Assembly: GCA_023142975.1 (NCBI GenBank)
Contig: JAGLIN010000051.1
Location: 1 to 27,635 of the forward strand
Direction of reading: 5' to 3'
DNA from: Candidatus Parcubacteria bacterium
Lineage (GTDB): Bacteria; Patescibacteriota; Minisyncoccia; JAHIHE01; JAGLIN01
Length of the DNA stretch: 27,635 bases
Shown piece by piece: positions 7,104-9,827 of this stretch. The notes beneath the pieces were generated by a model. That model was not told the origin of the DNA, did no database searches, and saw nothing but the letters and a program-made list of their open reading frames with translations. A program made the position numbers and the translations under genes. Every line of letters starts with the position of its first letter. Within the stretch, counting starts at the first letter, position 1.

Positions 7104-8375
7104 TTATTCATCTCTTGCTTTTTCCAGATCCTCCGTAACCTGACTTGCCTTTTCCTTTAGCATTTCTGCGTCAGGCTGCATAATTTTCTTGTCATATTGC
7201 GCTTCAACCAGCTTGGTAAAAGCGTTCATTTCATTCTGCGATACTTGAATCATATTGTCAGCGATTACTGTTTTACCACTATCCAAATAATCCAGCGCCT
7301 GATTCGCTTTTGATTCTGCGTTAGTTAATTTTGCCAATAAGGCGTTCTTAATTCCTTGATCAATATCTGAACTATTGACCAGCTCTGCTAACCATTGGAT
7401 TTCCAATTTGGAATATTCGACCATACTTCTTTTGTCCGCCCTAATCTTCAACTCCGCGAATGATGTGTTGCTGACATCCACGTTTGTCTCTGATTTCGCG
7501 TTCACGCTAAAAGTATAATTCACATCTTCCATTCCAGCCCAATTTTCAGGAACGCTTACCATAAGCGGTCTGATTTCCGACATACTTGGATTGAGTTCCA
7601 TATTTGAATTATTGAAAGTAGTCCAAGAACACTGGATAGCTGTAGGATAGCCTCTATAACCTGCGAAGTTTTCCGCTTCAAATGAAACATCATAAACATC
7701 GGCAAGATCGCCTTTGTTTGTAATGTTCACTGAATAAAAAACGGAGTCTTTCGGACTCGCTTCATTTTGAGCTGGAGTTATGTTGACTTCAACGCCATAA
7801 CCATCACTTTCCATATCTTCAATGGCTTTGATGATCGCATCTGAAACATCAGAAGCATCTGGTGACAGATATACTTTCCCGCCAGTTCTTTCTGATATTT
7901 CAGAAAATGCAGCGTAAGTGTCAGGATCAGAACCCACGACAATGCTATATACTCTGATCGGATCTATATTTTCAGACCAGTATGTTACATTATCAAGAGT
8001 ATGACCTCCGTCCCATAGTTCAGGAGCATAAGACTCAGGACCGCCTTGAGGAGGCGCATCACCCATTAAAATTATTGACTTAAAAGCTCCTTCCCTCCAG
8101 CCATAGTTGTCGGGATTGCCAACGCTATCCTTGTCTACATCTAACATATAGACATCACACCGTAAAATGGCACCAAGATTACAAAAGTATGCTAAAACAT
8201 TATCATCTATATCATCATCTCCCACATCATCAATAACAATTTCATTATCCCCATCATCCACCACTGGCGCCTGAACAGGCTCGTCTATCTTCACAAAAAC
8301 AACCCACCCCAAAACCAGCATCGCAACAACCACACTCAACCCTACAAAAATAATTGGTATTGATTTTTTGAACAT
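7104..8375 (-). CDS. Membrane-anchored extracellular protein: N-terminal TM and acidic linker, C-terminal half of a vWA domain, Ig-like (CARDB/NEW3-like) domain, helical tail
   Basis: GWREGAFKSIILMGDAPP, VYSIVVG and SERTGGKVY are vWA strand/helix motifs, but no DxSxS MIDAS strand precedes them. YSVNITNKGDLADVY is Ig-like. Confidence 0.65.
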   Translation of the reverse strand: MFKKSIPIIFVGLSVVVAMLVLGWVVFVKIDEPVQAPVVDDGDNEIVIDDVGDDDIDDNVLAYFCNLGAILRCDVYMLDVDKDSVGNPDNYGWREGAFKSIILMGDAPPQGGPESYAPELWDGGHTLDNVTYWSENIDPIRVYSIVVGSDPDTYAAFSEISERTGGKVYLSPDASDVSDAIIKAIEDMESDGYGVEVNITPAQNEASPKDSVFYSVNITNKGDLADVYDVSFEAENFAGYRGYPTAIQCSWTTFNNSNMELNPSMSEIRPLMVSVPENWAGMEDVNYTFSVNAKSETNVDVSNTSFAELKIRADKRSMVEYSKLEIQWLAELVNSSDIDQGIKNALLAKLTNAESKANQALDYLDSGKTVIADNMIQVSQNEMNAFTKLVEAQYDKKIMQPDAEMLKEKASQVTEDLEKARDE

Positions 8376-8446
8376 AGTTTTAAAATTTTATTATTCTTAA
8401 GTTAAAAATAACAGAGAGTGAAAAATATGTCGATTTATTGAGTTGA

Positions 8447-8887
8447 TTAACTCCCAATCACAACTATTTTCAACTTCCCTTTCAGTTGATCATCGCTTAC
8501 TATTCCAAAAATAATTTTTCCTTGTCCGCCTGATTTTTTATGTATTTTTTCGCCGACTTGTTTTACTTCGTCCATTAACAAATCTTTACCAGCGTAAATA
8601 ATATAGAGAACTTTTTTTAAATAGTCTTGTTTGCTGGTTAAATTGGTTTTGGAAAAAAGATTATTTACGATTGCGGATATTTCTTTTTTTGAACCAGTGG
8701 AATTATTAAAGAATGTTTCGCCGGAATTTTTGACGATGGTTTTTAGATCGGCAAAGTCAACATTGATAACGCCGCATTTGATAATTATATCAAGGATAAC
8801 AACGATGGCGTCGGCGATGATTCTTCTGCTGGAACGGATTTGTAATCCGTTTCTTTTGTTTTGAAGAATAATAAAGATTATTGAAAC
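8447..8887 (-). pseudogene. FtsZ C-terminal domain-only reading frame (no canonical in-frame start; pseudogene, frameshift or non-AUG start)
   Basis: My translation of the 146-codon stop-free frame reads ...RRIIADAIVVILDIIIKCGVINVDFADLKTIVKNSGETFF...KKVLYIIYAGKDLLMDEVKQVGEKI...KIIFGIVSDDQLKGKLKIVVIGS*. This matches the FtsZ T7 loop (GxINxDFAD) and C-terminal domain. Confidence 0.75.
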
Positions 8888-8922
8888 TTAGAAACATTTG
8901 GAACTGGTTACAAACCAGTTCC
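8831..8922. repeat. Pair of related REP-like hairpins in opposite orientation
   Basis: GGAACGGATT-TGT-AATCCGTTTC (8831..8853) and GGAACTGGTT-ACA-AACCAGTTCC (8900..8922). Confidence 0.6.
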
Positions 8923-8956
8923 CGCGTGAATCATTTATTTAATTATCAGTCCAACT

Positions 8957-8986
8957 AAAAACCTGCTTTGATTGAGCAGGTTTTTT
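8957..8986 (-). terminator. Intrinsic terminator after sppA (possibly bidirectional)
   Basis: AAAAACCTGCT-N7-AGCAGGTTTTT, 22 nt past the sppA stop. Confidence 0.75.
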
Positions 8987-9008
8987 AGATGACTCAAATT
9001 TCTATAAG

Positions 9009-9827
9009 CTACTGACATATTTCAATATCCTCGCCGATTTTTCCTCTTAAATATTCCTCCACTTCATATCTCCCGCCAATTCGGTCAATCAAATTATTTT
9101 CTAAAGCCATTTGACCAAGCATGTCTGATCCATCGGCAAGTTCTCTTATTTTTTCAATGTCTATATTGCGATTATCAGAAACTGCTTTGATAAAATTTTC
9201 GTGGAGAATATTAACATCTCGCATCAGCAATTCTTTTTCTTCGGGAGTTAATGGTTTGTCATAATTTCCAGTGTCTTTGAATTTTCCAGCGCTTAATTGA
9301 TTATATGTCAGTCCATCTTTTTCATTTTCTTTGGCATAGTCAAGATAAGACATTGTTATTCCAATACTGCCAACATCAGAATTTTGGGAAGCAAAGATTA
9401 TATCAGCGCCAGTGGCAGACCAATAAGCGGCGGAAAGTCCATATTCTCTGATCAAAGCAACTGTTGGCTTTTTTGTTCTTTTTAATGCATTAGCAACCTC
9501 TTCTGCAGCTACGGGACCTCCGCCTGGCGAGTTTATTTCTAAAACAATGGCTCTGATATTTTTGTTATTTTCGGCTTGTTCAATAGCTCTAACAATATCT
9601 TCTGAAGCGATTTCATCCCAGAGAAGATCTCCGTATTCATTTTGTCCTTCGTTGGAAATGTATGCTATTAAACCTCCTTGGAGTTTTATGTTTGAGACAT
9701 TGCAGGATTTTTCTTTAATATTATCATCTTCAAAAAATAAACAATATTGTTCTGTCCAAAAAGTAATTACTGTTAGGATGAGTATTATAATTGACAATCT
9801 TTTGAAAAAGTATTTTGGTAGTTTCAT
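9009..9827 (-). CDS. sppA: Signal peptide peptidase SppA (peptidase S49, 36K type)
   Basis: N-terminal TM, INSPGG, catalytic SAAYW, GSIG and SAGKFKD. Confidence 0.9.
   Translation of the reverse strand: MKLPKYFFKRLSIIILILTVITFWTEQYCLFFEDDNIKEKSCNVSNIKLQGGLIAYISNEGQNEYGDLLWDEIASEDIVRAIEQAENNKNIRAIVLEINSPGGGPVAAEEVANALKRTKKPTVALIREYGLSAAYWSATGADIIFASQNSDVGSIGITMSYLDYAKENEKDGLTYNQLSAGKFKDTGNYDKPLTPEEKELLMRDVNILHENFIKAVSDNRNIDIEKIRELADGSDMLGQMALENNLIDRIGGRYEVEEYLRGKIGEDIEICQ

Follow-up and report, generated by a model that had tools for sequence, protein, structure and literature searches.

Can the C-terminal half of FtsZ stand as a gene of its own? This question is raised by a 27,635-nucleotide (nt) contig of a Candidatus Parcubacteria bacterium (JAGLIN010000051.1, assembly GCA_023142975.1; the whole stretch, positions 1 to 27,635, is called the window here). 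On its minus strand, an initial annotation made from the letters alone had placed at 8447-8897 a stand-alone FtsZ C-terminal domain, perhaps expressed by frameshifting or from a non-AUG start and able to cap or depolymerise FtsZ filaments. We find that positions 8447-8822 derive, with near certainty, from a 304-residue FtsZ-like paralog, and that they are most likely a silent, non-functional, 5'-truncated relic of this accessory gene. As expected of a pseudogene, homology to the intact gene begins abruptly inside the open reading frame (ORF), and the frame has no canonical start codon. The breakpoint is exact and adjoins a dispersed repeat at a break in synteny, and independent assemblies reproduce the junction. 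The initial annotation had kept a pseudogene as an equal option, and this hedge is the reading that the evidence favors.

The frame is open from 8887 to 8450 (146 sense codons in the translation of 8447-8899), preceded by a TAA at 8890-8888 and closed by a TAA at 8449-8447. It had rightly been described as a stop-free frame overlooked by the ORF list, which gives here only a TTG-started ORF of 44 residues (8447..8581); no ATG, GTG or TTG occurs from 8887 to 8582, the first being the TTG at 8581. One public gene call exists at the fragment (P0001, 144 residues) and begins at the ATA at 8881. An alternative genetic code is unnecessary, as the adjoining genes are long ORFs under table 11. The frame, in which GVINVDFADLK occurs, aligns collinearly with FtsZ between helix H7 and the last core strand. 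Its N-V-D-F-A-D motif (8747..8764, minus strand; N200 at 8764 to D205 at 8747 in the numbering of the parent family) fits the NxDxxD T7 synergy loop of canonical FtsZ. The C-terminal subdomain is recognized by Pfam FtsZ_C (PF12327, 32.7 bits, cut-off 27), by the NCBIfam FtsZ profile (positions 194-320, E 3e-16) and in a phmmer search of the PDB, where fragment residues 4-124 correspond to FtsZ residues ~186-310 (E 3e-10, 48 FtsZ chains matched). The intact T7 loop and FtsZ C-terminal fold read from the translation are therefore borne out by these matches, and the signal is far beyond chance.

The FtsZ-like share of the frame amounts to 124-125 of the 146 codons (8821..8450). The extent given initially thus holds for the open frame and not for the homology. 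The first 21 codons (8887..8825) lie in a dispersed repeat and, with a 4-nt joint GAAG, form a chance upstream extension (8823..8887) that is not FtsZ-derived and offers no ATG, GTG or TTG. The remnant proper (8447..8822, minus strand) comprises codons 181-304 and the TAA. These codons encode the final 14 residues of H7, followed by the T7 loop and an entire C-terminal subdomain. Its first residue lies 10 residues into H7 (171-194 in the model of an intact relative described below). The N-terminal GTPase domain with its GGGTG[ST]G and GGGxGN motifs is absent, as had been claimed, the homology opening only at codon 181. At the other end, the protein finishes at the last core strand (...VVIGS, stop), without C-terminal linker or conserved peptide. 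The neighbors of the fragment, an S49 peptidase gene and a gene for a 423-residue protein of unknown function, do not form a division-gene neighborhood.

We searched 40 relatives with the fragment (all genomes compared here are metagenome-assembled). The congener G001 carries an intact 304-residue ORF (L007:1498-2412) with 89% protein identity over all 125 fragment residues, and a second intact 304-residue ORF lies in another genus, in genome G016 (L008:961-1875, contig G016:C17), with 69% identity. The remaining relatives returned only canonical FtsZ at 29-38% identity, except for one without any match. A database search with the G001 protein yielded about 39 clusters (P0003-P0041) at 40-93% identity, nearly all of 302-304 residues. 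These score 208-596 bits versus at most 125 bits for canonical FtsZ, a clear gap; the labels, given for a few clusters only, are Parcubacteria, Magasanikbacteria or Patescibacteria. Over 125 residues the fragment is 86-90% identical to the G001 protein and P0003-P0007, and it holds the C-domain motifs specific to the family (KVLY-IYAGKDLLM-EV and IIFG-V). The fragment descends, as initially proposed, from a diverged paralog instead of the cell's own ftsZ, whose canonical copy sits on contig C18 (Pfam Tubulin, PF00091, 173.7 bits; FtsZ_C 122.8 bits). On the TIGR00065 profile (cut-off 295.2 bits), this canonical FtsZ reaches 435.5 bits, the G001 protein 117.2 and the fragment 59.7. The strong divergence from FtsZ that had been remarked on is true of the whole paralog family but not of this copy in particular, which is 89-90% identical to intact 304-residue genes.

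What kind of protein was the parent? In the family alignment, the T7 loop is invariant ([VI]N[VI]DFADLK), with N200, D202, F203 and D205 unchanged in 37 members. The C-subdomain and the T5 FxFEG motif are conserved and the G-box partially so. Family proteins do without T2 (NTD) and T3 (GLGAG); a GNLANK-type sequence stands in place of the tubulin signature T4 (GGGTGTG), and the C-terminal linker and tail are missing. Modelled with AlphaFold2, the G001 protein (predicted local distance difference score, pLDDT, 87; predicted template modelling score, pTM, 0.87) matches residues 12-316 of S. aureus FtsZ at a template modelling (TM) score of 0.84-0.86. Because the T7 face is kept while the phosphate loops are lost, these motifs suggest that the family acts on canonical FtsZ rather than polymerizing alone, and an accessory role directed at FtsZ is possible for the intact family. 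Opposite the family gene, all copies inspected have an open antisense ORF of 77-111 residues (window 8631-8864, plus strand; L007:1685-2020; L008:1353-1586; L026:162-452), most likely a by-product of AT-rich codon usage.

The family occurs sporadically in Patescibacteria, in variable, defense-island-like contexts. Homology shared between copies reaches from 15-30 nt 5' of the ATG to the stop codon, with unrelated flanks; each copy is a minimal cassette. Neighbors include type I and type II restriction-modification genes, Fic (three contexts), DUF2779 (two contexts), a KAP NTPase, TraG-, MNT- and AntA-like genes and a Macro-domain gene. Among 20 flanking proteins, we found no conserved partner gene save one homologous pair of ~128-residue domains, in G016 and in L032. 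PADLOC, run on the intact relative and neighbors, reported no system, its sole result being a weak 1TM effector match on a neighbor of the paralog that the window genome carries on contig C14 (see below). As for the domain pair (L008:179-880 and L032:6953-7339, 44% identity), it is otherwise unannotated, lies upstream of the family gene in one case and downstream in the other, and is the sole recurrent neighbor without a Pfam match.

The truncation can be located to the nucleotide. The fragment aligns to the G001 gene with 89.9% DNA identity over 375 nt, from exactly 8822 to 8448 (blastn), and G001 residues 180-304 map onto it (tblastn). In a side-by-side alignment, the window and G001 sequences are unrelated upstream of ATCATCGCCGAC, so that homology sets in abruptly at 8822, inside H7, and it stops at the stop codon. 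Intact copies show the full 302-304-residue architecture with their own ATG and a short conserved leader; the fragment has neither of these and is preceded by a repeat instead.

This repeat is a complete copy of a ~99-nt dispersed element (8827..8925, no strand assigned) that terminates 4 nt before the FtsZ-like homology begins. It has terminal inverted repeats (GCGGGAAC...GTTCC[C/A]GC) and two hairpins of 10 bp each (8900-8922 and 8831-8853) separated by a ~45-nt spacer; both hairpins score as terminator-like. Hairpin copies number at least 18 in the 955-kb genome. Their stems, which enclose a conserved TTTGTAA or AAAAAAA loop, show covariation (CTG/CAG, CTA/TAG, CGG/CCG), and the terminal inverted repeats of the repeat family read GCGGGAAC...GTTCCCGC. 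Copies align across about 100 nt and are also present in both congeners searched, G001 and G002. Other copies in the window genome (G000) lie at C18:8403-8505, C14:10054-10185, on C86 (two in tandem) and on C16, C143, C64, C67, C79, C116, C138, C145, C112, C110 and C95. Read depth over 8818-8925 is at least 10-fold above the flanks in four runs. Short, non-coding, bounded by terminal inverted repeats and found in many copies in the genome and its congeners, the element has the traits of a miniature inverted-repeat transposable element (MITE); within 8300-9100, no Rfam family reached its gathering score. The copy on C18 lies ~330 nt upstream of the probable start of canonical ftsZ. A second, unrelated dispersed repeat (~82-100 nt, 84-96% identity) occurs on at least 12 contigs of the genome (C13, C20, C28, C35, C46, C70, C79, C92, C106, C122, C138, C151) and at L024:11937-12030 in G002.

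Besides the first 21 codons of the frame, the repeat includes the ATG at 8897 and the A-rich run, from which expression by frameshifting had been envisaged. This ATG is indeed one base out of frame, as had been noted, and begins an ORF of its own of 35 residues. It is part of the repeat consensus (CCAATGTTTCCC), and together with the A-run it is common to more than 16 copies. An indel at 8850-8897 had been suggested as something to look for in the reads. Independent contigs show none, and the sole insertion call (8853) traces to minority contigs that represent other copies of the repeat. A programmed frameshift from ATG 8897 across the A-run is rejected on these grounds.

The surroundings of the fragment are rearranged as well. 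Compared with the congener G002, conservation extends down to 8927 on the side of the S49 peptidase, and on the side of the 423-residue protein it resumes at 8429. In G002 these two points are ~14 kb apart, with a block homologous to window 18935-13232 between them (G002:C33, L024). Since the flanks are conserved but not adjacent there, 8430-8926 is filler at a rearrangement junction. A 497-residue gene of G002 (L024:12819-14312) has no counterpart in the window genome.

Faulty assembly does not account for the junction. Both sides of the repeat, and the breakpoint at 8822, are crossed with 0 differences by Logan contigs of a separate study (X2, 8525-8860 and 8831-8971; X3, 8793-9249), and the junction is also present in a contig of a ~5% diverged strain (divergence measured in the neighboring gene). 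The samples containing the stretch are cold-seep metagenomes, with no RNA run listed among them; the exact 25-mer of the junction had 0 matches in the JGI metagenome contigs scanned. A chimera, in which a full-length gene was mis-joined at the repeat, would be suggested by the high-copy repeat abutting the breakpoint, the 155 contigs of the assembly and its estimated contamination of 4.9%. Against it stand these independent-run contigs, a depth over the unique part of the fragment that equals that of the flanks, and the finding that the window genome holds no N-terminal half of the family gene besides that of C14. We regard such a mis-join as hardly credible.

These observations suggest how the relic may have formed. 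A rearrangement or deletion in this lineage, associated with the MITE-like palindromic repeat, would have removed codons 1-180 and the gene's own leader. Codons 181-304 would have stayed behind, flanked by the S49 peptidase gene's terminator and the promoter that serves the gene after them. That the frame is still open, and extends by 21 codons into the repeat, would be due solely to the time since the truncation being too short for a stop or an indel to appear.

Signals around the fragment are consistent with a silent piece of DNA. Upstream on the same strand, the gene for a signal-peptide-peptidase-like S49 protease (9009..9827, minus strand, 272 residues; Pfam Peptidase_S49, E 9e-35) is followed by a hairpin and T-run (8955..8986, minus strand; CCTGCT...AGCAGG TTTTT) that is likely its intrinsic terminator. 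A similar hairpin lies 3' of the C14 paralog, and the homology to G002 passes through 8955..8986 before ending at 8927. A scan of the minus strand from 8300 to 9100 for sigma-70 promoters gave a single match, at 8433..8405 (8405..8433), downstream of the fragment's stop and placed to serve the gene for the 423-residue protein (7104..8375, minus strand), and none between the peptidase terminator and 8822; the scan assumes the sigma-70 consensus. As far as such signals can be read, the remnant would be neither transcribed nor translated.

The family decays often, and the fragment is one of several broken copies. Six long family copies occur in four genomes among the relatives searched, and two of them are intact (G001 and G016:C17). 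The window genome itself carries the C14 paralog (C14:8607-9362, minus strand, equivalent to L002:1240-1995), a 251-residue ORF with start codon and N-domain and a Fic gene downstream, in which an in-frame deletion of codons 201-253 has taken out the T7 aspartates. This copy is a mosaic of three parts, each with a different closest match: G001 for the N-part (29 differences in 501 nt), the fragment on G016:C56 for the H7 segment (8 differences in 60, versus 13-19 for all others) and the window fragment for the 3' tail (9 differences in 153; P0007, 12). Family copies therefore do recombine. The fragment on G016:C56 retains codons 168-235, lacks the 5' part and has lost codons 236-293; that on G012:C43 starts from codon 197 and is frameshifted; and a fifth genome has a 5' stub of codons 1-28 (G005:C73). 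The copy at L026 (P0002), truncated at codon 124, adjoins unrelated sequence and has a +2-nt frameshift; it keeps an ORF of 147 codons that starts with GTG. Sequence upstream of the other truncated copies is unrelated, for which reason the repeat is rejected as a general cause of truncation in the family.

The reading as a stand-alone gene had been tied to the existence of intact FtsZ_C-only homologs, and none was found as far as we tested. A length-restricted search with the fragment returned only the window's own call (P0001) and P0002. In an exhaustive HMMER search, strong family matches fell at ~180-304 of proteins of 285-314 residues, with one exception, P0124 (190 residues, match 67-188). 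Two FtsZ_C-only proteins in the database are pieces of canonical ftsZ: L046:3-797 is split by an in-frame TGA, and L047:2090-2884, beside ftsA, has an internal deletion (residues ~47-127 missing). Altogether, none of the four short candidates checked, the window call included, was a bona fide stand-alone FtsZ_C protein, all being pieces of truncated, broken or mis-called longer genes. The in-frame TGA of L046 may indicate a TGA-recoding organism.

Several observations nevertheless weigh against a dead gene. No relaxation of selection is detectable on the fragment. Its ratio of non-synonymous to synonymous substitution rates (dN/dS) against G001 is 0.11-0.14, like the 0.13-0.15 found between intact genes. 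Least-squares, distance-based branch fitting over nine copies, in which the window copy is sister to the likewise truncated L026 copy, gives 0.10 for the window terminal branch (dS 0.14), 0.16 for L026 and 0.07-0.15 for intact genes. A three-taxon polarization, crude because its outgroup is saturated, assigns 8 non-synonymous and 14 synonymous changes to the window branch. Every amino-acid change in the fragment is to a residue found in other family members. The junction is shared with the ~5% diverged strain, whose allele is unphaseable from contig-level data, so that the truncation is not brand new, and yet 124 codons have remained without stops or indels. Shine-Dalgarno sites precede 6% of genes in the window genome versus 8% in the background; as the genome does not use them and its promoters are uncharacterized, missing classical signals are weak evidence of silence. 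Finally, the two domains of FtsZ have been described as folding independently (PMC7327170), which makes a stand-alone C-domain physically plausible.

The strength of the selection argument depends on what dead copies look like. Against their nearest intact relatives, the frameshifted G012 copy and the deleted G016:C56 copy give dN/dS values of 0.08-0.20. Broken copies being equally low, the low value of the fragment no longer supports maintenance. With dS of at least 0.3, most of the divergence is older than inactivation, and dN/dS cannot separate a recent relic from a maintained gene. The value of 0.10-0.14 has no power to decide the case. The initial inference that divergence without stops marks a maintained stand-alone gene is not supported, the fragment being the 5'-truncated piece of a 304-residue gene, cut at 8822 beside the repeat.

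Could the fragment still be functional? A functional mini-protein and a recombination donor are, even when considered jointly, an improbable outcome. As a mini-protein, the fragment would be expressed as ~125-144 residues of T7 loop and C-subdomain from a non-canonical start, such as the ATA at 8881 of the public gene call. It would dock on the GTP-bearing face of the cell's own FtsZ, stimulate hydrolysis and block subunit addition, thus acting as a capper or depolymerizer. The idea is mechanistically reasonable: in E. coli, fragments of FtsZ that span sites of longitudinal contact act as dominant negatives (PMC9245647), and besides the open frame and low dN/dS, the T7 motif and the C-domain residues conserved in the family are intact. 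One gene caller did predict a 144-residue protein, and the sister copy L026 lost its N-domain independently and keeps an ORF with a GTG start. However, the fragment has no ATG, GTG or TTG start and no promoter-like site downstream of the terminators. Its putative N-terminus would consist of repeat sequence holding a 10-bp hairpin, followed by an H7 without its first 10 residues. Truncation points also vary from copy to copy (codons 124, 168, 181 and 197), leaving no conserved stand-alone architecture, dead copies are as low in dN/dS, and there is no genuine FtsZ_C-only homolog among the candidates found. We consider such a capper quite unlikely.

As a donor, the fragment would be a silent 3' cassette, comparable to pilS, for recombination or gene conversion with the resident expressed C14 copy. 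C14 has the N-domain and lacks codons 201-253, so that C14 and the fragment jointly hold one complete gene, and the mosaic tail of C14 is nearest to the window fragment. The 3' fragments are promoter-less, yet the window copy shows no non-synonymous excess, and among the relatives searched three promoter-less 3' fragments occur versus one 28-codon 5' stub. Longer survival of 3' fragments is expected anyway, given that they are silent, and the tail is only marginally closer to the fragment than to P0007. The G012 and G016:C56 fragments carry frameshifts or deletions, and the fragment in G016 is not closest to G016's own intact copy. No recombinase or inverted-repeat architecture joins the two loci, and these lie on separate contigs, C14 and C103, in the 155-contig assembly. 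A donor role is accordingly very unlikely. A wider version would place the living fragment within a group of FtsZ paralogs that keep only the T7 loop, have degenerate nucleotide loops and ride defense or mobile islands to cap host FtsZ, the fragment serving as a minimal capper or as a silent donor rebuilding C14. We give this version only a slight chance. A silent relic of the 304-residue gene remains the preferred reading.

Had the fragment been what it first seemed, it would have represented a new class of FtsZ regulator, a natural mini-protein carrying only the T7 loop; the evidence points to an ordinary gene relic. This result guards against annotating the fragment as a gene, as one public call has already done, and is a reminder that low dN/dS and an intact frame may be poor guides if the closest intact relatives are far removed. 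The parent 304-residue family is more interesting than the fragment itself. Were its T7 face to bind canonical FtsZ, the family would be a bacterial equivalent of ARC3 and similar inhibitors derived from FtsZ.

How do the fragment and its parent family compare with known systems? With canonical FtsZ, they share a homologous H7, the NxDxxD T7 loop and the C-terminal subdomain. Unlike it, the parent family lacks the T2, T3 and T4 loops, the linker, the tail and a dcw-type context, and the fragment lacks the GTPase domain. Some genomes of the Candidate Phyla Radiation (CPR) carry a divergent second FtsZ copy, thought to derive from CPR FtsZ and treated in phylogenetic terms alone by the study that describes it (Santana-Molina et al. 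2023, PMC9871819). The 304-residue family is probably the same as, or overlaps with, this copy; truncated copies, motif loss and island context, which we find in the family, are not described in the passages of that study consulted. ARC3, derived from FtsZ, regulates FtsZ and does not polymerize, a precedent that bears on the possible role of the intact parent family. ARC3 is, however, eukaryotic and multi-domain (with a MORN domain), has no sequence-level link to the family and says nothing about a promoter-less fragment. A block on a single longitudinal face of FtsZ, including its T7 site, is enough to poison filaments, as MciZ and the dominant-negative fragments of E. coli FtsZ (PMC9245647) show. 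The MciZ peptide has no T7 face of its own but binds to this face, and the inhibitory fragments were expressed by engineering, in contrast to the window fragment, for which no expression signal was seen. The closest likeness is with ordinary pseudogene fragments at junctions with MITE-like or repetitive extragenic palindromic (REP)-like elements, which share the abrupt loss of homology, the adjacent palindromic repeat, the break in synteny and the missing start and leader. Nothing of substance separates the fragment from these; it is unusual only in its intact frame without visible non-synonymous excess.

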